Source of the DNA: Promethearchaeota archaeon
GTDB taxonomy: Archaea > Asgardarchaeota > Lokiarchaeia > Sigyniarchaeales > SOKP01
DNA length: 31,128 nt
Direction of reading: 5' to 3'
Assembly: GCA_008080735.1 (NCBI GenBank)
Contig: SHMW01000050.1
Span: 1 to 31,128, forward strand
Part shown: positions 4,615 to 28,448 of the stretch, one piece after another
Position numbering within the stretch: position 1 is the first letter of the stretch
Layout: every line of letters begins with the position of its first letter
Translations under genes and position numbers: made by a program
The notes under the pieces: generated by a model
Seen by the model: the letters and a program-made list of their open reading frames with translations, nothing else
What the model was told of the DNA's origin: nothing
Database searches by the model: none

Positions 4615-5940
4615 TTAGTCATCTCTGACCAAATTCTTTCCGTTAGTTAAATACTCTGTAAATCTAATTCTCGATGGACAAACATAGGAGCATAATCCAC
4701 ACTCGATACAGTCCTCCACATGCAATTTTCTTAATCGATTGGCATCCTTCTTCTTTTCTGCCTCCATTATTAGTTGCGGATAAATATAGACAGGACATAT
4801 GGTATTACAATATCCACAACGTATACAAGGTAATGGCTCTCTATATGGGTCAGGTTCATTTGGGGTAAATCCCGTTACTGCGGAAGTTGCTTTTAGGATT
4901 GGATAGGAAGGATTTGGGATCGTTGGACCCATCAATATTGAGCCCAAAATGATTCGCTCATATTGGGTGGGTGAGTCTCCAACAAACTTAAGAATATGGT
5001 CAACTGGAGTGCCCATACGAACCCATAAATTCTTTCCCCCTTTCTCTTTTGAATAATATGTAAGTCCACGAGATACCAGAGGTTCTCCTTTTTCTATCGC
5101 TTCCTCAACTGCATAAGCCGTTGCTACATTATGCACTAACACCCCAATATCTGGCGGAAATTTACCAGAAGGAACCTCTTTATCTAAGACCTCTTTTACT
5201 AGCAATTTTTCACTTCCAATAGAATAATTTGGACGCATGCGTTCTAAACTTATTTCATTTTCTTCTAAAAGCGCTTCAAATTCGGGAGTCTCACCTTCTT
5301 GAGTCCTTGTTGCGAAAGTAATCTTTTTAACTCCGAGTATTTTTGCCATTATATTTATCCCGTTGATAATCTCTTTCGGTTTTTCCATCATCAAGCGACA
5401 ATCACATGCAATATTAGGGTCGCTTTCTTTAGCATTGATAATAAGGTGAGAAATCTTTTGAGACGTGTTAAGTTTTACATGGGTCGGGAATGATGCTCCC
5501 CCTAATCCTACGATCCCAGCTTCGCGAACTCTTTCTAAAAGGATATTGCGTGACTCCTTCTCGGGATCTAGAGGCTCATAAAATGGTTCTTGATTATCAT
5601 CCTTGGTTGCTATTATTACAGCTTTTTCGATTTTTCCAGAGATAGGATTGAGCATTTCTATCTCTTCTTTTATTGTTCCCTTAACGGGCGAATGTATAGG
5701 AACCACCATTGGTCCAGCATCAGGATTATCTCCAATTTTTTGACCATAGCGAACAGATTCTCCTACATTAACGACCAAATTCGTTTCAGGTCCAATATGT
5801 TGCTTGAGAAAGACAATCATCTCCTCGGCGGGCGGTATAGTGGAAAAAGGGTCCTCTAATGCATTCATCTTGATATCGATATCAACATTAAATCTCCCCT
5901 TTTCTATGAACTTATACTCATTTTTCTTCTTAAAGAGCAT
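4615..5940 (-). CDS. rnfC: RnfC/RsxC-like NAD(H)/FMN-binding, 2x[4Fe-4S] subunit
   Basis: LKQHIG, IHSPVKG, AGIVGLGGASFPTHVKL, and two ferredoxin motifs CIRCGYCNTICP and CIECGLCSYVCP. ATG at 5940 is preferred over GTG 5949 because GGAGGTG (SD) lies just upstream. Confidence 0.9.
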   Translation of the reverse strand: MLFKKKNEYKFIEKGRFNVDIDIKMNALEDPFSTIPPAEEMIVFLKQHIGPETNLVVNVGESVRYGQKIGDNPDAGPMVVPIHSPVKGTIKEEIEMLNPISGKIEKAVIIATKDDNQEPFYEPLDPEKESRNILLERVREAGIVGLGGASFPTHVKLNTSQKISHLIINAKESDPNIACDCRLMMEKPKEIINGINIMAKILGVKKITFATRTQEGETPEFEALLEENEISLERMRPNYSIGSEKLLVKEVLDKEVPSGKFPPDIGVLVHNVATAYAVEEAIEKGEPLVSRGLTYYSKEKGGKNLWVRMGTPVDHILKFVGDSPTQYERIILGSILMGPTIPNPSYPILKATSAVTGFTPNEPDPYREPLPCIRCGYCNTICPVYIYPQLIMEAEKKKDANRLRKLHVEDCIECGLCSYVCPSRIRFTEYLTNGKNLVRDD

Positions 5941-5941
5941 A

Positions 5942-6964
5942 TTACCCACCTCCCTCTGATTCCCTATGGCCGAATGGAGTTCTTAGTATTGGTTTATCTA
6001 GCAAGGGTGTAGCAAAATTCAAAATAATCAAGGCAAAAATCGATCCCCCAACAATGTTAAAAAGTTGGAAAATGAACGTAAGTACTGCAATAGAGATTCC
6101 AAAAATGTATTGTGAGATTTCCGGCATCGGAGTCGATTGGGGTTCAGTAGCCATAAAAAATATCATAAAGATGAAACTTCCCGTAAATACGTGGAACGCA
6201 ATTCTTCCAAAAGGGTCTGGACCTACGATTAAACCAATTCCAATTGATAGTAATGTCATTGTAATTAGCCCTGAGATAATAATACGCCATTTATATCTAA
6301 GCCAATAAGCAGCGATCGAACCTACGATGAGAACGGTGATACTACTAGCTCCCCCGATCCAACCATGCTGTTGCCAGAGAATTAGACCCCAAGGTGCCGA
6401 AAGTTCTATACCTAAGAATGGTATAACCTTACCATCAAATATATACATAGAATCATTGAAACCTTCTGCGGTTAAAAGGTTTAATACTGCATGATGTTCG
6501 TGCAAAATTAGTCCGTTGAGAAGAGGATCCTGTAAAAAGACCATCAAAGATAATAGCACCCATAAAAACGATTTCGAAGCTGCTGCGGGGTTAAGATATT
6601 TTCTTTTGAAAAATTTTCCTTGCCCATACTTAAAAACCAGTATCATTAGAAATGCGACTATTGCGGTTATATAATAAGGCGCTGCTATAGGCATAGCTAA
6701 TCCTACAATCAGACCTGCCACCATAGACGATGCAGGTGTTTCATAGGTATAATCTTTTCCCTTTATTTTTTGATATGAATGGATCGTACCATGTACTATA
6801 AGGACGGTTCCTAATGCGATGAGTATATGGTTTAAAGCTCCCTGTTCCCACATAACAATTACCGAAAAAATTGCGATAATAGACATCATCAAAAAGGTCT
6901 TAAGCATGAGCTCATTCTTCTCAAATCCTATATATAAATGGGGTGGATTTACGACTTTATACAC
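5942..6964 (-). CDS. rnfD: RnfD/NqrB-family integral membrane subunit (divergent)
   Basis: N-terminal PPHL, LNPAA, GWIGGAS (cf. GSIGETS), FFMATEPQSTP (cf. FMATDPVTSP), NFATPLLDK; multiple TM segments; abuts rnfC. Confidence 0.85.
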   Translation of the reverse strand: MYKVVNPPHLYIGFEKNELMLKTFLMMSIIAIFSVIVMWEQGALNHILIALGTVLIVHGTIHSYQKIKGKDYTYETPASSMVAGLIVGLAMPIAAPYYITAIVAFLMILVFKYGQGKFFKRKYLNPAAASKSFLWVLLSLMVFLQDPLLNGLILHEHHAVLNLLTAEGFNDSMYIFDGKVIPFLGIELSAPWGLILWQQHGWIGGASSITVLIVGSIAAYWLRYKWRIIISGLITMTLLSIGIGLIVGPDPFGRIAFHVFTGSFIFMIFFMATEPQSTPMPEISQYIFGISIAVLTFIFQLFNIVGGSIFALIILNFATPLLDKPILRTPFGHRESEGGG

Positions 6965-7412: not shown

Positions 7413-8168
7413 ATGCAGTTTGATTCCGGACTTGGAGTATATTATAACAATAAAAAACAACCTCCCATCTCCACTGGAGATTCTACACTTGATGAATTAT
7501 TAAAAGGAGGGTATCGAAAAGATCTCGTCCATCTTCTCTACGGCGATCAAAATAAAACCACGAATATATTGCTTACCACCTCTGTAATTGTCCAGAAAGC
7601 GTTTTTTAATGGTGGATTAGGGGATGGAATTCGTGTGGCGTTTATCGACGGCAATAATCGGTTTAATCCGTATACTGTAAGCAAATTCGCAGCATCAAAA
7701 AAACTCTCACCGCGAAAAGTTCTAGAAAACATTATTATCGCCCGCGCATTTACGTGGGATCAGATGACAGAACTATTAGAAAACCGCCTTAAACGGTTGG
7801 AAGACGTAAAACTAGTCTTAATCTCAGGTATTACCAATCTTTTTCCGGCCTATGAAAAACATACATTTGAGGATTTGCTAAGATCAATAAGCGGTATTAA
7901 AGCGATTCTCTCTAAAAATAACCCATTGATAGTGATCACCGCACAGCTTCACGAATCCTCTCAATTCCGACCGAAAGGCGGAAAAATCCTCTCTCATTTT
8001 GGAAATGTACTTGTAATGATTAAAGATGATGAGCGATTTACAGAATACACTCTGATTCAGCATCCTTTTCTCTCTGAAAATCAACTAAAAAAGTGGAAGC
8101 CTCGTGAACCTAAAAGGAATTTGGGGAATCAATCCAAAAATAGTACTCTGGATATGTGGATGAAATAA
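7413..8168 (+). CDS. Inactivated RadA/RecA-fold paralogue (iRadA; ImuA-like), PolB2-associated
   Basis: RadA hallmarks ISTGDSTLDELLKGG, FIDGNNRF, LENIIIARAFT, PKGGKILSH. Walker A is degenerate (YGDQNKTT) and Walker B lacks Asp (LVLISG). No N-terminal HhH domain. Confidence 0.85.
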   Translation: MQFDSGLGVYYNNKKQPPISTGDSTLDELLKGGYRKDLVHLLYGDQNKTTNILLTTSVIVQKAFFNGGLGDGIRVAFIDGNNRFNPYTVSKFAASKKLSPRKVLENIIIARAFTWDQMTELLENRLKRLEDVKLVLISGITNLFPAYEKHTFEDLLRSISGIKAILSKNNPLIVITAQLHESSQFRPKGGKILSHFGNVLVMIKDDERFTEYTLIQHPFLSENQLKKWKPREPKRNLGNQSKNSTLDMWMK

Positions 8169-9878: not shown

Positions 9879-12284
9879 TTGACGCTACGGCATGAGTTTG
9901 ATGGATGGCTATTGGATGTTTCCACTTCCAGCAATGGGATGTATCTCTGGGTAAAACGAGCAGATAATCGCAAGGTTTTAAAACTATTTCAAGAATTTCA
10001 TCCAGAATTTTTTGCGGTTCCGCGTGAGAAGATTGACCACGATTTTGAGCGTTTAAGAACCATCTTAGAGGGACATCCCAATGTAAAAGACGTGCGAATC
10101 TGCGAGAAATATGTGAAACTTGAAGACGATTCCAAATCAAAAGTATTTGGGATTTCTGTGGAAAGACCTTCTGTATTCAAACAAACCATTGGAGATATTA
10201 AAAAACTTGATCTTTTCATTCTATATAACACAGATCTTCCGATCGCCCAAATGTATTTTTATGTAAATGATTTGTTTCCGATGTCGTTCTGCCATTTTAC
10301 CGTGGAAATTGACCCGCATAAACGACGACGAAGACTTTTCTCTCTTGAATTAAGGGATGATAATGAAACTTTGTTTTATGATTTACCACCGCTTACTGCT
10401 ATTTGGCTAGATATAAAAGTCCAACAGCAGGGGTTGAAATCTTACTTCAATGAACCAATCTCCTATGTAGAAATCAGTATTATTGAAAATGATCGCAATT
10501 GGAACGTCCCGAGAGCGGATGGGGCGATCAAAAAGAAAAAGATCATCATTGATAAAGCTGATGAAGTAGAGAATCTCAAAGCAATAAGTAAAGTCATCGA
10601 AAAGGTGGATCCAGATATTATTCTTACCAAAGGAGGGGATGAATTTATCTTTCCTTATCTTATCGCGAGAGCTTCCGTGAATCATATGGGAAAAGAACTT
10701 TATTTTGGTCGAACAAAAACGCCTCTCCATTATTGTTTATTTGATCTCTCAGGTGGACCTGACCACTACTTCACCTATGGAATCATTCGTCGTCGCTCAA
10801 AATCACAGGTATACTTCACGGGTAGGTTCCATCTTGATACTACTACGTATGGTAGCTTGCATTTTACGGAGGGAAATATCCCCGGAGTAATTGAAGTCGC
10901 AAGAGTTTCTCGGGTACCTCTTCAACGCTTATGTCGGATCACCATCGGCGGTGCTCTCCAATCCATTCAATATTATTATGCCTATCAACTAGATCATCTC
11001 ATCCCCCCCTTTAAGAAGAGCCCAGAAGATTTTTCCTCTGCAATGGATCTGATACGGAGCGATCGCGGTGGGCACATTTTTGAACCGATTATCGGTGTGT
11101 TTGACAATGTTGCTGAGCTTGATTTCTCTTCGATGTATCCCTCCCTTATGGCTAATTATAATATTTCATCGGAAACAATAAACTGTAAATGTTGTGCAAA
11201 AGATGGGACTGGTATAAAAGTTCCTGGATTAGACTTTCATATATGTTCAAAGCGAGAGGGAATCATAGCGAAGTCAATAAGCTTACCACTAAATAAACGA
11301 CTAAAATGCAAAAAATTTGTGAGGGAAACTGGGGATCTTCGATATAAATTCACCGATATTGCACTTAAATGGGTATTAGTAGTTAGCTTCGGTTATTTGG
11401 GTTTCAAAAATGCGAGATTTGGGAAGATTGAAGCTCATCAAACGGTTTGTGCGTTTGCCCGCGATTTTTTGATGAGATCCTCTGAAATCGCAAAAAAATA
11501 TGGGTGCAAAATCATTCATGGGATTGTTGATTCGTTATGGCTCCAAGATACCAAAGATAGAAGTAAAGAGGAATTTGCCCGAATCACAAAGAAAATTGCC
11601 AAACAAATCACTCAAGAAACGAATATTCCAATGAGTTGGGATGGGATGTTTAACATCATTGCATTTCTTCCTTCGCAAGCGGAGCCTGATGTACCCACCC
11701 TTAATCATTATTGGGGGATCAAGACAGATGGTTCTACAAAGGTAAGAGGGATCGAAATACGTCGGCGAGACAGCCCAATGGTAATTAAACGAGCCCAAAA
11801 AGATTTTATCAAGGTATTTAAAGATGCGAATTCCGTAGAGCAATTTAAACGGAAAATACCTGAGGCTAAACGAACATTCGTAGAATATGTAAAAAAAATT
11901 AAAGAAGGTTCACTTACCAAGGAAGAACTCACGATAAGACAGCGAATTTCACGTAAACCATCACAATATAAGGTCAATTCATACCAAGCCGTCGCAGCGA
12001 GACAGGCCGAACGCGCGGGTCTCATTATGACTCCAGGAAAAAATGTTCGGTATATTATATTAAATGCAGATGCTGATCCAAATTTTCCGAATAAGAAAGT
12101 CATCCTTACTGAATTATACGATAAAAGTATTCATTTCTATGATCAAGAAAAGTATTTAGAGCTACTCAAGAGAGCATTTGAAAATATTTTCCCCTTTGAG
12201 TTTGACGACCTTGACGAATTGTTAGATCACATTTCTACTGAGAATACGGTACAAACGAATCTGCGGTCTTTTGTTAAAGAGTAA
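9879..12284 (+). CDS. polB2: Family B DNA polymerase, PolB2 (Dpo2-like) group, proofreading-deficient
   Basis: Motif A LDFSSMYPS, motif B LKWVLVVSFGYLG, motif C HGIVDS (instead of YGDTDS), KVRGIEIRRRD. Exo motifs are eroded (LDIK, GGDEFIF). TTG start. Confidence 0.9.
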   Translation: MTLRHEFDGWLLDVSTSSNGMYLWVKRADNRKVLKLFQEFHPEFFAVPREKIDHDFERLRTILEGHPNVKDVRICEKYVKLEDDSKSKVFGISVERPSVFKQTIGDIKKLDLFILYNTDLPIAQMYFYVNDLFPMSFCHFTVEIDPHKRRRRLFSLELRDDNETLFYDLPPLTAIWLDIKVQQQGLKSYFNEPISYVEISIIENDRNWNVPRADGAIKKKKIIIDKADEVENLKAISKVIEKVDPDIILTKGGDEFIFPYLIARASVNHMGKELYFGRTKTPLHYCLFDLSGGPDHYFTYGIIRRRSKSQVYFTGRFHLDTTTYGSLHFTEGNIPGVIEVARVSRVPLQRLCRITIGGALQSIQYYYAYQLDHLIPPFKKSPEDFSSAMDLIRSDRGGHIFEPIIGVFDNVAELDFSSMYPSLMANYNISSETINCKCCAKDGTGIKVPGLDFHICSKREGIIAKSISLPLNKRLKCKKFVRETGDLRYKFTDIALKWVLVVSFGYLGFKNARFGKIEAHQTVCAFARDFLMRSSEIAKKYGCKIIHGIVDSLWLQDTKDRSKEEFARITKKIAKQITQETNIPMSWDGMFNIIAFLPSQAEPDVPTLNHYWGIKTDGSTKVRGIEIRRRDSPMVIKRAQKDFIKVFKDANSVEQFKRKIPEAKRTFVEYVKKIKEGSLTKEELTIRQRISRKPSQYKVNSYQAVAARQAERAGLIMTPGKNVRYIILNADADPNFPNKKVILTELYDKSIHFYDQEKYLELLKRAFENIFPFEFDDLDELLDHISTENTVQTNLRSFVKE

Positions 12285-17546: not shown

Positions 17547-20500
17547 CTAAATCAAGTTAATAAGGAATTGAAGATAGAAAATCAAAAGCGTAATTATCAA
17601 GATGATTATAAAGAATAAAGTTAAGTAAAACCTCCACTTTATTGAAATCCCTTCTTTCTTTTCTAGATAATAGATATAAGGCAGAAAAATCGCACCTAAG
17701 ATAGTCAATGATAGAAATAACGCGAGTAAATAAAATCCCATACCGATATAATTGAAGATGATTCCTAAAGTGCCTGCCCATATCGATGATAAATAGATGA
17801 TTCTATATTTTAATAACAAATTTGGGTTAAGATTTTTGAATATCTGTGCGATAACAAAATAAATGAGAAAAACGACGATACCAAAACCCACTAATAAGGA
17901 ACTAACCAGATTTAATCCTAAATAGAAAAATGTCAAGATAAAAACCATTCCTCCAATAAAAACACTAGTTAGTTTCCAAAGAATTACCCAATTCTGTTTA
18001 ATAAATACTTTTACTTTTTCTAATAATAATTTGATGTGAAGCTTTAATGAATGTATAAATTGGGCAATTTTGTTTATTAGGTTATTAAAAAAATCTTTTA
18101 AAATCTCCAACAAGAACACAAAGGGAAAAACTAATATAGAAATGATAAAGAGTGAAAGGCTAATTGCGAGTGAATAATATGTTAGTTGGTAGGTTATCTG
18201 AAATAAAAATGCGCTAATGAGTAGAAATAGAACAATCCAAGATATAAATGTAATCTTTGAGCTTCTTTGGAACAGATCTAGAATAACAATATAAAAAGCG
18301 AATAATACTAAAAGGGAGAGATTTAAACTAAGAAATAGAGTCACAAAGGCATATAGTGGCTTCATATAAACTTCCAAGAGAATGAAGAGATCCAAGCTTA
18401 GAAGATGGATAAAGATAAAAGAACAATAGTAGCTAAGTTTTTTCCGGAGATTTTCTCCCATAAAATACGAAATATTATTTAAAAATCGTAGAATGCCTAA
18501 AAATATGATAAGGGAGAGAAGGAGGAGATTGTAATTTAAAATTAAGTTTGATGAGAAGAAATAGATTGGAAAGGTGACAAAATCGAAATAAAGAATTCCA
18601 AATAATATCCTCTTGATATTGAATTCATTTTTTCTAATAAAACTCAAAAATTTGGAAAGGAAAAGAAACCCAAATAATTCTAAATCAATTAAAAGAATGA
18701 CAAATGGGATGCTAATAATTGACAAATTATACAAGTATAGAAAAAATAGATTAAAGAGGAGTATGTTTGAATCGACCATTATAATTATCCAAGCTATTAG
18801 TCTTAAATAATTCCTAAGATGTTTTAAAAATTGAAAAACAAACTCATCAATATAGGTAAAAGCGAATAAGATAACACTTAAAATCAGAAGCTGAGAGAAT
18901 AAATCTAATAGAAATAAGCTTTCTTGTATTAAATATAATATCGAGAGGTACCACAATATTACTAATACGATATTTATCCTTTCATATAGTTGGACAAATT
19001 TTTTTGAATTGAAATAACTTTCAGAATCTTCTTTATATTCCCAGGCTTTTTGTCGATAGCCATAAAAGAGATAATTAGCTAAGAGCAACATACTTATAAA
19101 GAAAACCATAGTTAACTTTAGAAGGATAAAAGACAAATATAGATATTTTAACAGCACAATAGATCCAAACACGGAGAGACTAATAACTGATGGCGCTAAT
19201 AGAGCTCTAGATACATTTTCATCCAATTCATTGAATACCGTTATATCTAAAATGAAACTGGAGATTAAAATTAGATTTACCACTAATAATGATTCTTGTA
19301 TTCCCAAGAAATTTGAAATAAAGAAATAGGAAACAACCAAAATTTGTATATATATAGCATAGGAGAGATAATTCAATAGCTTTTTTGTAGGAGTTGAGAA
19401 TTTATCCCTCAAAGCAAAAATATTCGCATTATTTATCGAAATATAAAGAAGGAATAATTCTAATAGCAAAACTAAATTGATTAAGAAGAGATTTATGAGA
19501 TTATATAGGATGAATATAATCATCAAATTAGCGGGTAAAAATATAATAATTCCGGTTAGAAAGAGGTCCTTAGCAGTTTTATAGGTAGATTTTATTTTAT
19601 TAACTATAATCGAACTCAAAACAAAGCCAGTAATGGAGAAATATAATAATATCATGATTATATAATATATAGGATTTGTCTGTAATTCTATCAATAGAAA
19701 TAAAGTAAAATCACTTATGGATAATGAAATAAGCGAACATACAGAGATTAAACTCAATAAATCAAAAAATAATTCCAAGAAGTTAATAATTCGGCTTTTA
19801 CCGAAACCTAAAATAGTTTCAGCTACTTTAAGCGTGATAAGATTCAATATAGCGAAAAAAGTGACAAAGATTCCAATTGCTAATGGTAAAGATAATGCAG
19901 AAAAATCAACTAATAAGAATAATATTAGAGATGGCGTTAAATAACTTAATAGAGATAATAAACAAAATCCAAATCGTACCTTTAATTTTAACTCTAATAG
20001 TTTTATACTATAAAAGTCAATTAGAAGCTCAAATAAAAATAAAAAGACGATTAAGTGAGAAAGATAGATAATATTATAGAGCAATTGTATATTTAAGAGT
20101 AAAATTCCTATAAAGAAAGCTAATGATATTATTAGAGTACTATAGAATATTAAGCCAAAAGAAGTAGTATATCTTTCTGGAGATTTGACACCTATTACTT
20201 CACTATTTATTCTGAAATAATAGATGACCAAAATATTCAGAATTGAAAGGAAGAGAATAAACAGAAAGATTCGATATAGGAAAATTGGAGAAAAAATATA
20301 GGCAAATATTAGAGAAAGAAATATCGAATTTGATATGAAACAAATTAGATTTATCTCTTTAAATAATTTGAGATTAGAAAGATAATTATAGAGACCATAT
20401 TCCTTTTCTTGGGGTTTGATATATCTCTTTCCTAAATTAATTAATAATTGAAAAGTAATAATATATATAACCGCCCAAACTAATAAAAGAACCTCGCGAA

Positions 20501-23500
20501 TTAATAACAGGTAATTGAATACACTAAGTGATATAAAGGCTAACGAGATTGGATATAAGAAGAATAAGACGAATTTATATCTATATAAAATGCGATGTAT
20601 AAAAAGGATATTGATTATTGTAAAGACACTCATTAAAATCCATATTCTTTCTGGTATATATATTGCCAATAGGAATGTGGCTGCCAGAGACACACTTACT
20701 CCAAGGGGCAGCCAAAAAATCCTGACCTTTATTTTTCGTACTAAATATCCAAAATTATTAAAAAGCAATAGAGAACCAAAGAAGATTGAACAAGCGAAGA
20801 AAATGGCAAAAATATGATAGTTAGTTATTAAACTAAAGCTAAAATAAACAAGCAATGAACTATTTATCACAAGAATAAGCGATATAACAAATTTCATTAT
20901 TGGCTGATTAATCTTTAGATATTTTGAGCTAAATAAGCCTCCTGCAATCATCATAAAGGTTAAATTAAGCGAGATGAAAGGATTTATAATAATTATAAAC
21001 AAGATAGAGAATATAACCAGAAATAACCCAACAAAAATTATAAAATATGAGATGATCAAAATTATTCCATAGGACCTTACATTAGGAAACAATGAATAAA
21101 TCATTAAGAATATACCTGCAGCGATTAGCGTCAATCCAATAATCCAATCGATACCAAAAGCTAGGGTACAGAATAGGTAGTTAACAAATCCTACATTGAT
21201 AGACGCTAAAAGAAACCATATCAATGAAAATAGTTTCCAAAATTTCAATCTCCAAAGTATTGGCATTAGAAGGAAGAGAGATAGGATTCCGAAAAATAAA
21301 CTTGAAAGAATGACATTCTCAATAAATAAATTCTGGCTGATCCAATAAGTTAAAGCTAATGATTCAGACCATATTACTAATAAAACGATATTAAAATACT
21401 GTTTTAATTTAAGATATAACACGGGTAAATAAAAGAGGGAACATATAACTAACGTTATTATCAGCGAACCATTTATATCTAGAATGCCAAAAAAACTTAA
21501 TGCACTTGTTAATATATCTATTCCTCCAAAAAGATTATAGATAAGATAAAAATTGATTAAAGGAACAAATAACCACAACCACCATCCAATTTTCCAAATT
21601 ATCCATGAGATTTCCCACTGATAAATACCAATAGATATATAAAATAGAACTACGGTGAGATTGAGCATTATGATAATTAAGATTGGATTAGAATATGAAA
21701 ATCCGAAATATGAGATCAAAAGAGCATAAAGAAACCCAGGTGAAAAAATTATAAACGAGCTTAAGGCTATCAAGAAGGTAATTTTTCTTAACGAATAAGG
21801 GAGCTCATTAAACAAAATGACAAAACAAATACTTGTAATAGCAGTAGTCAAGCTGAAAGTAAGAATTATATTGTAAAATTGATATCCTGGATTGATGAAA
21901 AGTAATGTATAGGATATCCAGCTACTCAGATTAAATACCAATAGCAAAATTCCTGGTCTTATGAACCATTTGTATTTTTCATTCTCTCTTAAGTAAAAAT
22001 CAAATCCTAACAAGAAAAATAAAACTAAAATCGATATGGTAATCTGATAAATTAGAAAAATATCGGCAAAACTAATTAAAGAGAGAAAGGTAACCGTGGA
22101 AAGAAGAGAGTAAATGGAGTATCGTTCTATGAGGTTCTCAACTTCCGAATATATCGCAATTGAGAGAGCAAATATAATAATAAGGTGAATTAAATATAAT
22201 ATTATTTGAAACCCAAATGGTAAGCTTAAAACTAATCCCAAGACATCAAGCAAATCAAAGAAAATATATGTTTTAGTAAAACCTATTACGCTGAGTAATA
22301 GATATATTTCAAATTTTCTAAGATGATCCTCGGGTCTTTCATATAATAAAACTAAATATAATATTAAGATGCTAAATAACAGAAATTCAGCTGTGTTTAA
22401 AAAAATGCTAAACAGAACGATATTTAGCTTAAAAAAGGTAAGATAATACGTTTTGAGAAAAGAGTTCCCCTCGATTATCCTTATTTTGGATTTTATTAGA
22501 AATTCGATTACGAAAAAGGAAAGAAGGCTTAGACCAATCGCAGAAGAGAGGTCCAGAGGGAGTTTTTCTAAGAAAAACAAAGTCCAGAAATTTTCTATAT
22601 AAAGATAGCTTAAAAGGCCAACATTTAAGAGAAATACAATTGTCTGTGAATAATTGCTTAACCATCCAATTTGATAATTTTCTTTACGCTTATGGAATTT
22701 TAGCTGGAGAGGTAATAGAAGAGTAAAAAATAACGCGAATAATATGAAATATTTTATTATTTCCTGAAATTGATAGAAGGAAGTTAATAGATTAGATATG
22801 AGGATTATTGAACTTAATATGGACGATAAAATGAGGAAAATTCCATTAACATTGATCTGCTGGAAATTATCATATATTCTTCCTAGAATTGTTTTCATTT
22901 TGTCTTTTTGGGAGATATATTCATAATTTAATATGTCTTTGATAAGCCAGAGGGTTATTATATTTGAGAGAAGAAATATTAGAATTGGAATTGCCATTAA
23001 CAGTAAGTTCATAAAAAAATTATATGGCATGAGAAAACCAGAGAAAAGCTCCAAAATTATCAGAGTAGAAACAATATTGATTGCGAGAGAATCAAGGATT
23101 TGGATAAGTTTTGATAGCGCGATTATTTCAGAGGAGACTTTCGATTCTTGCCCAAATATGTCAATAAATTTGATAAATACAAATAGAAGTACTAAAGTAG
23201 GTAAGATTATGTAATAAACATGGACAAAATAACCAACTTTTACTAATTCCAAACCAATAAAAGTTGGGATAGAGATTATAAATACAGATAAGAAAAGAGT
23301 GTTTATTAGAATCAAATATTTTATAATATCTCTACTAAAAAGGGATTTACTATAAGAGAATCCAAGAGGAAGGAAAAGAAAAGTCGATGTAAGAATCAGG
23401 GGTACAATCAAACCAATAAAAAACCCGGATAATAAGTTATTTGAATAATAGAATACAGTTGTTCCCGCAATAATACATTCAATTAAAACTTGGACTTTAA

Positions 23501-25961
23501 GGATATTATTGGAAATATTTTCATCCAAATCTTTCTTTTTCAAAGCTAAATAGAAGAATACTAAAATACCATAAAAAATATATAAACTATAGTTTATCGT
23601 GTTCATAATATCAAAATTTTGTCCAGCCATAACAACCTCCGCATTAAATAATCCAGGAAAAGCTATAATTAGACCGGATAATATAACATTGTTTATCCAC
23701 ATCAATTTTATTATGAGCTTTTGATGATAATTCTTCTGTAAGAGATAAATCAGAGCAAAATTAAATCCAATACAAAAAAAGAGCAATGGAACATTAAATA
23801 TGTAAAATGTATTTAAACTTAGTAAAAAAAATCCATAAAATAAGATTAAAGCGAAATAGAATAATACAGTAAAATTTAGTAATATCTTGAATGTTTCATT
23901 TTTAATTTCATTTATCGAAACCCCAATGTTTACTATAATGGTGCTTAACACGAGGGATATAAATATTGAAAGAAAGAGATTTTGAAAGATGAAGAAATTC
24001 GAAACTATCAAACTTAATGAGAAAAAGCTTAGAGATATCAATACCAAATCAATATTACTAGCGTTAGAATAAAGATCCTCCGAGAATTTTTCTAAATTAT
24101 AACCATATTTAAGCTGGAGTTGTATAAAACTGAATAAAATTATAATATCCAAGAGAATAATACTAATTGAACTTATAAGGAGGATTATATCTTGACTTAA
24201 TATCCACGGAATTGTTAGGCTAGTAATGAACATAAATAAAGACGAGATTAATCCCCAGTTAAGATAAAAGTAGTAAATAGAAGGCTTTTTTATGATGTTG
24301 AAAATCGAATTAATGTAGATAAAGATAATGAAAAGAACGAAAAATAAAACAATTGAAAAACACAATATTGGTAAAAAGATATCAACAGTGAAGAGTAGAA
24401 ATATACGATAATTAAGGTATGTAAAAATAAGCAAATCTAAAAGACCAAAATTCAAGAATAGGGCCTTCTTGAATATTTTTTGCTTCTGTTCTCGAAAATA
24501 GACGGAATACAGTCTATAAAATGATATGAGTAATGTAAATAGGAATATGATTAAAAAAATAAAGATTCTGGAGATAAAAAGAATCTCGATAATTGAAGTA
24601 AATAAAAGCTCTTGCGTTATAATGAGGGGATATATGGAATAAGTTATCGAAAAGAAAGCGATTATTGCGATAATATTCTGGATAATTAAGATATTTTCTT
24701 CTTTAAAACTCTCACGCCGTTTAAATATTTCTAAAGTGAAATAGAGAGATATCGTGAATATTGCGAGTTGAAACTGAAAACTTAAGATGGGGAAATAAAA
24801 TGGAAGAATAAAAAACGATAGAATGAAGATGGGGGTGATTACCAGGGTAAAATAGAAATATTTTAATAGGTGGTTAGAAATATAATCAGATTTTCCTTCA
24901 AGATATAAATCATAAAAAAAGAGGGGAAAAAAGAAGATTGAAACAACTATGAGTTCCATAAAATACAAAGTGCCTACAATACCTAAAAATAGCAAAAGAG
25001 TTATAATAAAATTGTAATTTGTATAAGCTGTCCGCGATTTATTGTTAACCTCCCTTAATTTCCAAAAATAAAGAGATGATACTAACCTTAATTTCGTATA
25101 TAGAAGACAAAAACACAGAATTAGTAATATATTACTAACAATTGAAAATATTTCTAAACTGGAAAATGGTATTTGGAAAATTAGATTTTGGGCTGGTATT
25201 AAAATCATTATTCCGACAATCAGACTTTCAATTGAAATTACAAACTTGTTTTTGAATATTGTCAATCGTTTCCCGAAATATTTCTCAGTTTTCTCATTTG
25301 GGCTAAAAGACGCTCGTTCAGAATCAGTATAAAACCATAAGTATAGCCAGAAAATAGAATTTAATGCTAAAATCGCACTAAGTGAAGTAATCAAATATTG
25401 TGTGCTGAAAAGCAGAACAATCAGATGAATAAACCAATTCCCCAATAAAACAAGATTATGCGGTTCCTTAATCCAAATCATAACATTAATACCATAAAAT
25501 TTTTTCTCATCCGGTCTAAACATTTCAATTGGTTTTTTATAAGAAAAATAGAAGATATTGAGATTAATAGTTCCATAATAGAGTGCGGGGAGGAATTTTA
25601 AAAAAGGATCCTCTGGAATGAGGAGTAGAAAAATCAAGGGAATTACTAAGGATACTAAAGGAATACCGAAAATAAGAAACAATCTGGCATTGAGATTATT
25701 CTTCTGGTTATTAAATATTTGCTTATTTCTATATTGATCGTATTTTGTATAAAGCAATAATTGAGTAGTTACAAAAGGCGGGATGGAATAAGCGATGGAT
25801 GCATTCGTTCCCAACCCAAGGTTGAATAATACAAAATAAAAAATTACGAAAATTATTGATGAAATTATAATCAGATAGAGAAAAAACCACCAAATCTTCC
25901 ACATTAAGTCAGTAATTTTTTCTAATTTATCTTCTGAAGAATTATTCATTGGATTCTCCAA
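17547..25961 (-). CDS. Giant polytopic membrane protein of unknown function (2804 aa)
   Basis: 8.4-kb uninterrupted ORF. I/L/F-rich hydrophobic segments separated by short Lys-rich loops along the whole length; no recognisable soluble domain. Confidence 0.85.
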   Translation of the reverse strand: MENPMNNSSEDKLEKITDLMWKIWWFFLYLIIISSIIFVIFYFVLFNLGLGTNASIAYSIPPFVTTQLLLYTKYDQYRNKQIFNNQKNNLNARLFLIFGIPLVSLVIPLIFLLLIPEDPFLKFLPALYYGTINLNIFYFSYKKPIEMFRPDEKKFYGINVMIWIKEPHNLVLLGNWFIHLIVLLFSTQYLITSLSAILALNSIFWLYLWFYTDSERASFSPNEKTEKYFGKRLTIFKNKFVISIESLIVGIMILIPAQNLIFQIPFSSLEIFSIVSNILLILCFCLLYTKLRLVSSLYFWKLREVNNKSRTAYTNYNFIITLLLFLGIVGTLYFMELIVVSIFFFPLFFYDLYLEGKSDYISNHLLKYFYFTLVITPIFILSFFILPFYFPILSFQFQLAIFTISLYFTLEIFKRRESFKEENILIIQNIIAIIAFFSITYSIYPLIITQELLFTSIIEILFISRIFIFLIIFLFTLLISFYRLYSVYFREQKQKIFKKALFLNFGLLDLLIFTYLNYRIFLLFTVDIFLPILCFSIVLFFVLFIIFIYINSIFNIIKKPSIYYFYLNWGLISSLFMFITSLTIPWILSQDIILLISSISIILLDIIILFSFIQLQLKYGYNLEKFSEDLYSNASNIDLVLISLSFFSLSLIVSNFFIFQNLFLSIFISLVLSTIIVNIGVSINEIKNETFKILLNFTVLFYFALILFYGFFLLSLNTFYIFNVPLLFFCIGFNFALIYLLQKNYHQKLIIKLMWINNVILSGLIIAFPGLFNAEVVMAGQNFDIMNTINYSLYIFYGILVFFYLALKKKDLDENISNNILKVQVLIECIIAGTTVFYYSNNLLSGFFIGLIVPLILTSTFLFLPLGFSYSKSLFSRDIIKYLILINTLFLSVFIISIPTFIGLELVKVGYFVHVYYIILPTLVLLFVFIKFIDIFGQESKVSSEIIALSKLIQILDSLAINIVSTLIILELFSGFLMPYNFFMNLLLMAIPILIFLLSNIITLWLIKDILNYEYISQKDKMKTILGRIYDNFQQINVNGIFLILSSILSSIILISNLLTSFYQFQEIIKYFILFALFFTLLLPLQLKFHKRKENYQIGWLSNYSQTIVFLLNVGLLSYLYIENFWTLFFLEKLPLDLSSAIGLSLLSFFVIEFLIKSKIRIIEGNSFLKTYYLTFFKLNIVLFSIFLNTAEFLLFSILILYLVLLYERPEDHLRKFEIYLLLSVIGFTKTYIFFDLLDVLGLVLSLPFGFQIILYLIHLIIIFALSIAIYSEVENLIERYSIYSLLSTVTFLSLISFADIFLIYQITISILVLFFLLGFDFYLRENEKYKWFIRPGILLLVFNLSSWISYTLLFINPGYQFYNIILTFSLTTAITSICFVILFNELPYSLRKITFLIALSSFIIFSPGFLYALLISYFGFSYSNPILIIIMLNLTVVLFYISIGIYQWEISWIIWKIGWWLWLFVPLINFYLIYNLFGGIDILTSALSFFGILDINGSLIITLVICSLFYLPVLYLKLKQYFNIVLLVIWSESLALTYWISQNLFIENVILSSLFFGILSLFLLMPILWRLKFWKLFSLIWFLLASINVGFVNYLFCTLAFGIDWIIGLTLIAAGIFLMIYSLFPNVRSYGIILIISYFIIFVGLFLVIFSILFIIIINPFISLNLTFMMIAGGLFSSKYLKINQPIMKFVISLILVINSSLLVYFSFSLITNYHIFAIFFACSIFFGSLLLFNNFGYLVRKIKVRIFWLPLGVSVSLAATFLLAIYIPERIWILMSVFTIINILFIHRILYRYKFVLFFLYPISLAFISLSVFNYLLLIREVLLLVWAVIYIITFQLLINLGKRYIKPQEKEYGLYNYLSNLKLFKEINLICFISNSIFLSLIFAYIFSPIFLYRIFLFILFLSILNILVIYYFRINSEVIGVKSPERYTTSFGLIFYSTLIISLAFFIGILLLNIQLLYNIIYLSHLIVFLFLFELLIDFYSIKLLELKLKVRFGFCLLSLLSYLTPSLILFLLVDFSALSLPLAIGIFVTFFAILNLITLKVAETILGFGKSRIINFLELFFDLLSLISVCSLISLSISDFTLFLLIELQTNPIYYIIMILLYFSITGFVLSSIIVNKIKSTYKTAKDLFLTGIIIFLPANLMIIFILYNLINLFLINLVLLLELFLLYISINNANIFALRDKFSTPTKKLLNYLSYAIYIQILVVSYFFISNFLGIQESLLVVNLILISSFILDITVFNELDENVSRALLAPSVISLSVFGSIVLLKYLYLSFILLKLTMVFFISMLLLANYLFYGYRQKAWEYKEDSESYFNSKKFVQLYERINIVLVILWYLSILYLIQESLFLLDLFSQLLILSVILFAFTYIDEFVFQFLKHLRNYLRLIAWIIIMVDSNILLFNLFFLYLYNLSIISIPFVILLIDLELFGFLFLSKFLSFIRKNEFNIKRILFGILYFDFVTFPIYFFSSNLILNYNLLLLSLIIFLGILRFLNNISYFMGENLRKKLSYYCSFIFIHLLSLDLFILLEVYMKPLYAFVTLFLSLNLSLLVLFAFYIVILDLFQRSSKITFISWIVLFLLISAFLFQITYQLTYYSLAISLSLFIISILVFPFVFLLEILKDFFNNLINKIAQFIHSLKLHIKLLLEKVKVFIKQNWVILWKLTSVFIGGMVFILTFFYLGLNLVSSLLVGFGIVVFLIYFVIAQIFKNLNPNLLLKYRIIYLSSIWAGTLGIIFNYIGMGFYLLALFLSLTILGAIFLPYIYYLEKKEGISIKWRFYLTLFFIIILIITLLIFYLQFLINLI

Positions 25962-27581: not shown

Positions 27582-27597
27582 CGGTAAAATTTAAATA
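27582..27597 (+). promoter_or_regulatory. Putative archaeal BRE/TATA promoter of the leader-peptide transcript
   Basis: CGGTAAAA followed by TTTAAATA (27590-27597), 26 nt before ATG 27624, the spacing expected for a leaderless mRNA. The background is AT-rich, so the match alone is weak. Confidence 0.45.
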
Positions 27598-27623
27598 ATC
27601 TTATTGAATTTAATGATATAATA

Positions 27624-27710
27624 ATGATCTCAAATACTACTACTGGTAATACATCGGAAGAATTCTTATCCGAGTTAGATTTAGGTGTAGTGGTAGTAGT
27701 AGTATTATAA
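27624..27710 (+). CDS. Putative leader peptide, 28 aa (MISNTTTGNTSEEFLSELDLGVVVVVVL)
   Basis: Hand-translated. Six consecutive Val codons (27687-27704) then Leu and TAA, directly before a structured region. Confidence 0.5.
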   Translation: MISNTTTGNTSEEFLSELDLGVVVVVVL

Positions 27711-27711
27711 G

Positions 27712-27864
27712 CAAGAGAACATTTCCGACCAACCTTTTTCTTATGAAATGCTTGCGGGGTGTTCTCTTGGTGTGCGAGTCAATTTTATTCGAGAAAGGTT
27801 CTTGAAATGTTTTCCGCTTTTCTGAGATCTGGATATATATTAAAATAAACAGAAAGGAGGAAAA
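27712..27864 (+). promoter_or_regulatory. Structured cis-regulatory RNA with alternative helices and an SD-sequestering hairpin
   Basis: Pairings by eye: 27712-27725/27756-27769; 27731-27740/27791-27800; 27743-27756/27773-27788; 27715-27725/27804-27814; 27792-27798/27817-27823; 27810-27824/27850-27864, which covers AGGAGG. Confidence 0.6.
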
Positions 27865-27866
27865 AA

Positions 27867-28004
27867 ATGACAGTTATTCGAGAGCAAGATATTGAATTTA
27901 AGCCTATTGAGATTGACAATTCAAAGGAAATTATTAAAATGTTGGATTATTGTAATTTCGGAATGCCAGGCGAATTCTTTATCCATAGTGAAATGGCTTG
28001 GTAA
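27867..28004 (+). CDS. Small hypothetical protein, 45 aa (MTVIREQDIEFKPIEIDNSKEIIKMLDYCNFGMPGEFFIHSEMAW)
   Basis: Hand-translated. Strong AAAGGAGG SD ending 6 nt before the ATG; protein-like composition. Confidence 0.6.
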   Translation: MTVIREQDIEFKPIEIDNSKEIIKMLDYCNFGMPGEFFIHSEMAW

Positions 28005-28238: not shown

Positions 28239-28448
28239 ATGAATAAACAAATTGAAAGGACATTTAAAAAAATATCTGTAAAATATATTAAAAATTTTCA
28301 GAGAGAAAAAGAGGATAAGGCAATCGCACCTGATGAATTTTACACTACTATTGTAAAGGATTCAGAAATACGACAGGAAACCCTTGAGAATGAAGATGAA
28401 CTCAAGATGGGACGATTATGGAATAAATATAGTAATTTTAGAAGATAA
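28239..28448 (+). CDS. Small charged hypothetical protein (69 aa)
   Basis: Non-overlapping ORF filling the gap, convergent with the aminotransferase; no motif recognised. Confidence 0.55.
   Translation: MNKQIERTFKKISVKYIKNFQREKEDKAIAPDEFYTTIVKDSEIRQETLENEDELKMGRLWNKYSNFRR

Follow-up and report, generated by a model that had tools for sequence, protein, structure and literature searches.

A probable ribosome-read amino-acid attenuator upstream of a microprotein gene in one family of Promethearchaeota

The leader of a 45-aa microprotein gene in a Promethearchaeota archaeon is very probably, as judged by comparison of its sequence with those of its relatives, an amino-acid attenuator read by the ribosome, a type of control known from bacteria. 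The window referred to throughout is the whole analysed stretch of DNA, 31,128 nucleotides in length. The leader contains a short upstream open reading frame (uORF) ending in a run of Val and Leu codons, followed by a helix (A) and a rod-like helix (B) that compete for the same RNA. The best explanation overall, to which we give an even chance, is an attenuator that would sense charged tRNA-Val and tRNA-Leu, control a starvation-induced microprotein and act through an output of the type of aCPSF1/FttA, an archaeal protein homologous to CPSF73, the nuclease of eukaryotic 3'-end formation. Amino-acid-sensing leader peptides are a textbook mode of control in bacteria. For archaea, no published leader peptide of this kind was found in the open literature, most subscription papers being outside the coverage of the search.

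Layout and conservation of the leader

All the elements listed in the initial annotation, namely the TATA box, the 28-codon ORF, helix A, rod B, the anti-SD and the 45-aa ORF, were verified in both letters and coordinates (Table 1). The locus is flanked by a divergent GH4 glycosidase gene on one side and a convergent class I/II aminotransferase gene on the other, indicating from their orientation that neither is the target of the leader. Other genes of the window include a 2804-aa multi-pass membrane protein of high hydrophobicity, for which Pfam gave no match at E<=1e-5 (17547-25961, minus strand), an RnfC- and RnfD-like gene pair (4615-6964, minus strand), a RadB/Rad51-like gene (7413-8168, plus strand) and a family B DNA polymerase (9879-12284, plus strand).

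Table 1. Coordinates of the leader elements in the window and of further leaders in the genome (G000)
Feature	Position	Strand	Remarks
TATA box TTTAAATA	27590..27597	+	archaeal; transcription would begin close to the uORF ATG, giving a leaderless transcript
Leader-peptide uORF (putative sensor)	27624-27710	+	28 codons; six Val codons, one Leu codon, TAA
P1, uORF self-hairpin	27633-27652/27686-27706	+	Thr/Asn codons pair with Val/Leu codons; P=0.98
Segment 1	27712..27725	+	5' arm of helix A and helix D; within the footprint of a ribosome at the stop codon
Segment 2	27731..27756	+	candidate site for aCPSF1/FttA; loop of helix A and 5' arm of rod B
U-tract	27735-27739		within the loop of helix A (segment 2)
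Segment 3	27756..27769	+	3' arm of helix A
Segment 4	27773..27800	+	3' arm of rod B; contains the proposed 'decoy' 27792-27798
Segment 5	27803..27824	+	partner of segment 1 in helix D; alternatively acts as anti-SD in this genome and some relatives
Helix A	27712-27725/27756-27769		14 bp, -17.0 kcal/mol
Rod B	27731-27756/27773-27800		-23.5 kcal/mol
Helix D	27715-27725/27805-27815		segment 1 with segment 5; extends rod B; P=0.84
Decoy pairing	27792-27798/27817-27823		7 bp, -4.4 kcal/mol; P about 0 unconstrained
Anti-SD:SD duplex	27810-27824/27850-27864		-15.1 kcal/mol
Shine-Dalgarno (SD) GGAGG of the 45-aa gene	27856..27860	+	strong SD in 24/24 microprotein leaders
45-aa ORF	27867-28004	+	acidic microprotein, Promethearchaeota-specific
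69-aa paralogous microprotein	28239..28448	+	BLASTP to fusion P0144, E=1e-7
ilvE leader L053	G000:C3:33216-33302	+	P1/A/B layout, Ala-rich uORF, 135 nt upstream of ilvE
leuA leader L055	G000:C4:16918	-	poly-Leu uORF, then a single hairpin
Leader L054	G000:C1:127026	-	Leu/Val/Ile-rich uORF and strong hairpin before a pyruvate/ketoisovalerate:ferredoxin oxidoreductase operon
Ile-rich uORF with adjoining helix	G000:C12:46911	-	before a citramalate-synthase-like gene (putative name)
Phe-rich uORF with adjoining helix	G000:C55:4846	-	before a pheS-like gene (putative name)
Trp-rich uORF with adjoining helix	G000:C74:18404	+	before a trpB2-like gene (putative name)

A total of 26 homologous leaders were gathered by DNA and protein searches, and a covariance model built on these 26 matched 119 of the 134 genomes of one Promethearchaeota family and 0 of 24 genomes outside the family. 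By such comparison, the TATA box, the uORF, helix A, rod B and the 45-aa gene are conserved within this one family. No Rfam family matched the leader, the best being caiA with 24.8 bits against the 55.5 needed (E=0.16). The region 27600-27880 folds with z=-5.2, none of 200 shuffled sequences being as stable, and the uORF, helix A and rod B are kept in the homologues with compensatory changes, so that the structure is beyond chance.

The spacing between the TATA box and the ATG is 28-37 nt in 81 leaders, with a mode at 33-34 nt, from which we infer that the leader mRNA is leaderless. On the minus strand, TTTAAATT is located at 27595-27588, overlapping the plus-strand TATA box. A minus-strand reading of the region was rejected, the TATA box, ATG, frame and SD all being conserved on the plus strand. 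An internal promoter before 27867 was likewise not accepted as conserved: the TATA-like word of this locus, which may still serve as a promoter in this genome itself, occurs in only 1 of 24 orthologues.

Among the 93 leaders examined for frame, 81 carry a TATA-defined ATG (the first ATG 24-43 nt past the TATA box), and in 80 of these 81 it is in open frame with the stop that adjoins helix A, the leaders having been selected with a model whose training set was 26 of these, and the stops chosen near the expected position. The frame assigned initially to the uORF is therefore conserved among the homologues. The two alternative frames across the uORF carry stops in 93 and 83 of the 93 leaders, respectively, and the length of the uORF ranges from 20 to 35 codons. 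The uORF is probably a real coding feature, that is, a conserved, leaderless and translated leader peptide.

Codon runs and the genes that they precede

The final eight uORF codons of the initial 26 leaders comprise 106 Val, 82 Leu and 2 Ile codons among a total of 208. Within this run, GTA represents 80% of the Val codons (31% in the genome) and TTA represents 70% of the Leu codons (39% in the genome). The Val codons peak at positions -7 to -3 of the uORF, and the last codon is Leu in 100% of the microprotein, IlvE and acyl-CoA dehydrogenase (Acd) leaders. The run described initially as poly-Val is kept in the orthologues as a codon run, but its residues are Val and Leu and not Val alone, and the predicted sensor reads both amino acids rather than Val only.

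The identity of the run changes with the downstream gene. The most common target of the scaffold is LeuRS (about 37 of 93 leaders), and the same RNA scaffold also precedes 56-68-aa microproteins. Within the last 10 codons, Leu accounts for 61% in the LeuRS leaders (archaeal- and bacterial-type), Ala for 46% and Val for 24% in the IlvE leaders, Ile for 45% in the leaders of an FrhB-like protein, Val for 60% in the Acd leaders, and Val for 44% and Leu for 42% in the leaders of the 45-aa gene. The case for amino-acid sensing is strongest in this match of run and target on one and the same scaffold; with the 45-aa gene the link between the two is indirect, only the Val/Leu-poor composition of the protein connecting them. 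We consider it highly probable from these codon patterns that the leader is a leader-peptide sensor of amino acids, read by the ribosome.

The C-terminus of the uORF product is hydrophobic in most classes, and the Val/Leu codons double as one arm of the hairpin P1, so that part of the codon choice at the 3' end is tied to this pairing, which counts against sensing. In addition, the leader codons of Streptomyces coelicolor ilvB are dispensable (PMC1262725). These points would agree with a leader that senses no amino acid, its uORF either encoding a hydrophobic micropeptide with a function of its own or arising as a by-product of a cis-regulatory RNA structure to which a protein or ligand binds. 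This alternative is nevertheless improbable, because Ile, the commonest aliphatic residue of the genome (9.9%), supplies only the 2 codons among 208 in the 45-aa class and is dominant in the FrhB class, because the runs become Ala, Leu or Ile runs where the target differs, and because the peptides of some leaders are not hydrophobic and comprise 16-18 different residues. Furthermore, the run is kept in genus g11 despite the loss of P1, and the leader has no Rfam match.

Aminoacyl-tRNA synthetase genes are induced by a shortage of charged tRNA, as in the E. coli pheST attenuator and the T-boxes. Since LeuRS genes are among the targets, the analogy with bacterial synthetase control points to a leader that is ON in starvation; given an amino-acid sensor, this polarity, which the initial annotation had also proposed, is likely, with the LeuRS paralogues and the Val/Leu-poor target as its grounds. 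The reverse polarity, ON with plentiful Val and Leu, would imply either catabolic control or a shunt-like translational coupling across the rod. Some targets may indeed be catabolic (acyl-CoA dehydrogenase, IlvE), and the fold of rod B plus helix D puts the uORF stop near the downstream start, but the commonest target, LeuRS, is shortage-induced by established logic and the microprotein avoids Val and Leu, leaving this reversal very improbable.

The genome of the window carries the paralogous scaffold with an Ala run before ilvE, and leaders of simpler build with cognate runs before leuA (Leu), the citramalate-synthase-like gene (Ile), the pheS-like gene (Phe), the trpB2-like gene (Trp) and the 2-oxoacid oxidoreductase operon; among these leader targets, gene identity was confirmed by profile for leuA, ilvE and the 2-oxoacid oxidoreductase. 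The ilvE leader (L053 type) is kept in at least 8 genomes, and at the leuA loci (including L057-L086) the Leu run and stop are followed 0-5 nt later by a hairpin in 29 of 30. Additional short Ile-rich and His-rich ORFs precede other genes at G000:C76:16089 (minus strand) and G000:C66:418 (plus strand), perhaps by chance. Elsewhere in the family, Ile/Val-rich leaders (L125, L143, L150, L159, L162 and L168) precede the FrhB-like Fe-S protein, which carries a C-terminal TrmB-type HTH and for which a role in Ile or branched-chain metabolism is suggested. In genus g5 (L129, L130, L133 and L153), a bacterial-type LeuRS is placed under the leader shared with the archaeal-type LeuRS elsewhere. The uORFs with 16-18 different residues precede 56-68-aa microproteins (L155, L156, L157, L163, L167, L169, L171, L173 and L174), and in G114:C84 and G133:C40 such leaders occur as tandem copies spaced by about 640 nt; this group is a candidate for a general sensor of amino-acid starvation.

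The 45-aa gene was found in 36 of the 134 genomes of the family. Its product has 120 homologues, the named ones being Asgard 'hypothetical protein' entries, mostly of Promethearchaeota/Lokiarchaeia, which supports the Asgard origin proposed initially, and no match in Pfam, PDB or the named Atlas clusters; a SUMO2 match was disregarded (E=2.2). The AlphaFold model is a single helix (pLDDT 72, pTM 0.30), too small and weak for a fold search. The 45-aa proteins contain 1.6% Val and 4.9% Leu, against 5.1% and 9.9% in the genome, and only 2 of the 45 residues of the present protein are Val or Leu (p=0.027). The 45-aa and 60-69-aa families are fused elsewhere into two-repeat proteins of 105-114 aa (P0133, P0143, P0144 and P0151), indicating the kinship of the two families; no relation emerged when the profile of the 45-aa family was compared with one 65-aa protein. 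The 45-aa protein and the neighbouring 69-aa ORF appear to be two repeats of one motif. One two-repeat fusion gene carries the same leader, and members of the microprotein family have the leader directly upstream in L011, L136 and L155-L174, while in genus g2 (L040-L043, L051) some copies of the 45-aa family have their own TATA box and no leader. Most simply, an acidic, Val/Leu-poor small protein induced by starvation would be a regulator that binds another protein.

Alternative helices, ribosome position and output

Helix A starts 0-2 nt past the stop in 80 of the 86 leaders. It shows two-sided changes at 10 of 14 pairs, with 84.5% paired (0 of 500 shuffles), and is the best among slid registers; the core of rod B is 85.4% paired with 26 two-sided cells (1 of 500 shuffles), and this conserved core pairs exactly the U-tract. 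In a swap test that depends little on alignment, each arm was scored with its own partner and with partners taken from other genomes. The native score was below the swapped one in 77 of 78 leaders for helix A and 73 of 78 for rod B, against 31-40 of 78 for the control pairings; the leaders are kin, so that p-values overstate, and the control pairings behave as nulls. Helices A and B, both proposed initially, are thus real by covariation among the homologues.

Two further helices, P1 and D, were absent from the original description and dominate the full-length fold. P1 gave native below swapped in 73 of 86 leaders and is likely a pause hairpin or a once-only hairpin that blocks re-initiation. 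The count for helix D was 24 of 26 in the first leader set and 52 of 78 overall, and was not significant in the LeuRS leaders. A possible helix P0 between the uORF start and 27822-27830 is weak (P=0.03 here; swap test 53 of 86). In genus g11, P1 is replaced by a pairing of the 5' part of the uORF with segment 1 (-13.5 versus -4.2 for shuffled sequences), which would resemble a classical 1:2 protector.

The footprint of the archaeal ribosome extends 15-16 nt from the P site (PMC7261190), so that a ribosome on the stop codon would cover about 9-10 nt of segment 1 and abolish helix A. The predicted score of helix A is 0.10 with the ribosome on the stop, 0.33 on the last codon and 0.82-0.90 at three or more codons upstream. 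The fall from 0.90 to 0.10 with 10 nt masked supports the earlier proposal that the choice between helix A and rod B depends on the position of the ribosome. At equilibrium, rod B beats helix A once segments 4-5 exist, mask or no mask. Helix A is a transient, co-transcriptional fold only, indicating that the choice is probably made during transcription.

The initial annotation had placed the output in translation, with the decoy capturing the anti-SD when helix A forms and the SD being sequestered otherwise. This part was not supported. When helix A was enforced in this sequence, the decoy had P=0.00 and the anti-SD:SD duplex P=0.88, much like the 0.89 with a ribosome on the stop; the SD was relieved in the B+D fold only (0.54). 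In the swap test the decoy pairing gave 40 of 78, close to the control pairings. The pairing of anti-SD with RBS also gave 40 of 78 when pooled (p=0.0015), and was significant within no target class (11 of 24 in the microprotein leaders, p=0.12). In this genome, opening of the SD costs 5.0 kcal/mol in the free RNA (B+D) and 7.7 kcal/mol with a ribosome on the stop. Across 24 orthologues, however, the masking check proposed earlier gave no consistent flip of SD accessibility with ribosome position (opening energy 9 up, 10 down, p=0.75); a flip hinted at by the crude unpaired probability was dismissed after opening energies with chimera and shuffle controls showed none. Leaders of the g11 lineage have no anti-SD, and a strong SD is present in 1 of 34 LeuRS leaders, the other 33 being without one. 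Sequestration of the SD would be, at most, a lineage-specific second lock.

The same observations bear on a purely translational switch with the same sensor and polarity, in which a ribosome on the stop would free segment 5 to sequester the SD (OFF) and a stalled ribosome would leave segment 1 to hold segment 5 in helix D (ON). The strength of the anti-SD:SD duplex and the rise in opening cost in this genome fit such a switch, as do the rise in 8 of 13 leaders of the 60-68-aa class (p=0.01), the covariation of helix D in microprotein leaders and the precedent of the mycobacterial leaderless polyCys uORFs (10.1101/834739). We regard it as unlikely, since neither the 24 orthologues (p=0.49-0.75) nor 30 LeuRS leaders showed a consistent flip, anti-SD:RBS covariation appeared in no class, and both the g11 leaders and nearly all LeuRS leaders are without the required elements. 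A translational switch also leaves unexplained why the transient helix A is the best-conserved element, and P1 should impede the repeated translation of the uORF that steady-state control needs.

An output mainly by co-transcriptional termination or cleavage appears to us evenly balanced against the other possibilities, and among such outputs premature termination of the aCPSF1/FttA type is the favoured candidate. No terminator-like site of the intrinsic type (GC-rich hairpin plus U-run) was detected in the window, and a U4 tract follows within 12 nt of rod B in 6 of 86 leaders and of helix A in 3 of 86. The loop of helix A is the one place where a U4 tract is conserved; it is 76% pyrimidine and contains at least one U4 tract in 83 of 86 leaders and at least two in 56 of 86, a count that is partly circular because the leader anchor required U3. 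aCPSF1 binds U4 tracts, the Loki orthologue likewise in vivo (PMC8716108), and FttA engages nascent RNA at nt -1 to -36, with U-richness at -30 to -36, and threads the RNA directly out of the exit channel (PMC11616081). aCPSF1/FttA is encoded in the genome (TIGR03675 above cut-off). Together, the U4 tracts in the loop, the presence of the factor and its binding to U4 and nascent RNA lead us to propose an FttA-gated termination.

In the proposed course of events, the ribosome would load on the 5' AUG during transcription, P1 synchronising the loading or making it a once-only event. Under starvation, it would stall on the Val codons (-7 to -3) and leave segment 1 free, and helix A would form as segment 3 emerges, drawing the pyrimidine-rich RNA at the polymerase exit into its stem, so that aCPSF1/FttA could not thread and read-through would follow (ON). 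The read-through RNA would then refold into rod B plus helix D, by which the U-tract would be hidden and, here, the anti-SD kept off the SD. In fed cells, the ribosome on the stop would block helix A, segments 2-3 would be single-stranded and the transcript would be cut or terminated (OFF); transcripts escaping in this state would form rod B without D, and the freed segment 5 would, in this lineage, act as a further lock on the SD. Some points count against this scheme. U-richness at the FttA positions (-30 to -36, with U at -23) gives several modest peaks, none of them sharp or decisive at the point of choice by helix A, and in both states the U-tract passes through a single-stranded phase, which leaves the FttA step an analogy. 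The OFF state also requires that the ribosome linger on the stop for the time taken to transcribe about 45-60 nt.

Sensing codons that run up to the stop also fit the opposite geometry, still ON in starvation, with helix A as the OFF fold. A stall on the last codons would then cover segment 1 and block helix A, rod B hiding the U-tract (ON), whereas a fast-terminating ribosome would depart and let helix A show its U-tract loop to aCPSF1 (OFF). Consistent with this geometry are the constant terminal Leu codon of the microprotein, IlvE and Acd leaders, the precise pairing of the U-tract by the rod B core, the pyrimidine-rich loop with its U4 tracts, and the mycobacterial polyCys leaders, in which stalled ribosomes open an inhibitory structure (10.1101/834739). 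However, a ribosome at the Val peak has its footprint short of helix A, six codons without a sensing role separate run and stop in the Phe leader of this genome, the hairpin of the Ile leader begins 9 nt past the stop, and the protector pairing of g11 fits helix A as the stall-dependent fold. Moreover, the threading of RNA by FttA from the exit channel (PMC11616081) would be poorly served by a loop that a stem closes off, and we consider the opposite geometry unlikely.

Relation to known attenuators and implications

Like the enterobacterial attenuators as generally known (trpL, ivbL-ilvBN, leuL, pheM-pheST), the present leader has a short uORF with a cognate codon run, an alternative helix a few nt past the stop and a hairpin inside the leader ORF, and the targets include aminoacyl-tRNA synthetase and biosynthetic genes. 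Unlike these, it has an archaeal TATA promoter, a leaderless uORF and no GC hairpin with U-run terminator; the mutual exclusion of its folds is mainly topological, the run extends to the stop, and the target is a microprotein. The conserved leader ORF, the cognate run and the mutually exclusive helices of the classical trp/leu/ilv type are thus found here, but the intrinsic terminator is not. The layout is closest to that of the mycobacterial leaderless polyCys sORFs, the 'Cys ribulon', in which a stalled ribosome blocks an SD-sequestering duplex (10.1101/834739). Both have a leaderless uORF with the sensing codons at the 3' end, occur at many loci in a genome and lack an intrinsic terminator; in contrast to the Cys ribulon, SD sequestration is not conserved here and the conserved switched element is the U-tract. 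The sensing uORF of translational attenuators (polyCys and ermC type) is present, but not their conserved flipping anti-SD:SD, the duplex here being limited to this genome and some relatives. Since the intrinsic terminator is absent and the anti-SD is not conserved, the leader is filed apart from both the classical and the translational types.

The predicted actinobacterial leaders of leuS, ilvB and leuA (LEU element) likewise carry Leu or Ile/Val/Leu runs upstream; compared by description, they differ in having terminator hairpins with poly-U or Leu codons that pair with the SD (PMC1262725). On mutation, the ilvB and leuA leaders of S. coelicolor did not behave as classical attenuators, so that support from this side is ambiguous (PMC1262725). 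The proposed output resembles that of Rho-dependent attenuators as generally described (tnaC, mgtL), in that the position of the ribosome would decide the loading of a factor on unstructured pyrimidine-rich RNA. The functional analogue in archaea would be aCPSF1/FttA (PMC8716108, PMC11616081), which, unlike Rho, is a nuclease and not a translocase. As for aCPSF1/FttA terminators, U4 tracts in the nascent RNA (83/86, partly circular) and the factor itself are present. No paper describing FttA-gated attenuation was found.

A wider reading, which we put forward tentatively as somewhat less than an even prospect, is that leaderless attenuators operate genome-wide in this Asgard family, the ribosome gating aCPSF1/FttA, with one scaffold re-coded for each target. 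Different copies of the scaffold would respond to Leu, Val, Ala or Ile, or to almost every amino acid together, and would control LeuRS, branched-chain amino-acid enzymes and a novel group of regulatory microproteins induced by starvation. The covarying family, present in about 120 Asgard genomes, provides comparative evidence for a coupling between translation and RNA folding during transcription, and such coupling would be in the lineage closest to eukaryotes. The leader provides a short, portable element for testing whether and how the ribosome excludes FttA/aCPSF1 from nascent RNA, and it assigns a putative regulatory input, shortage of Val/Leu or of amino acids in general, to an unannotated family of microproteins.
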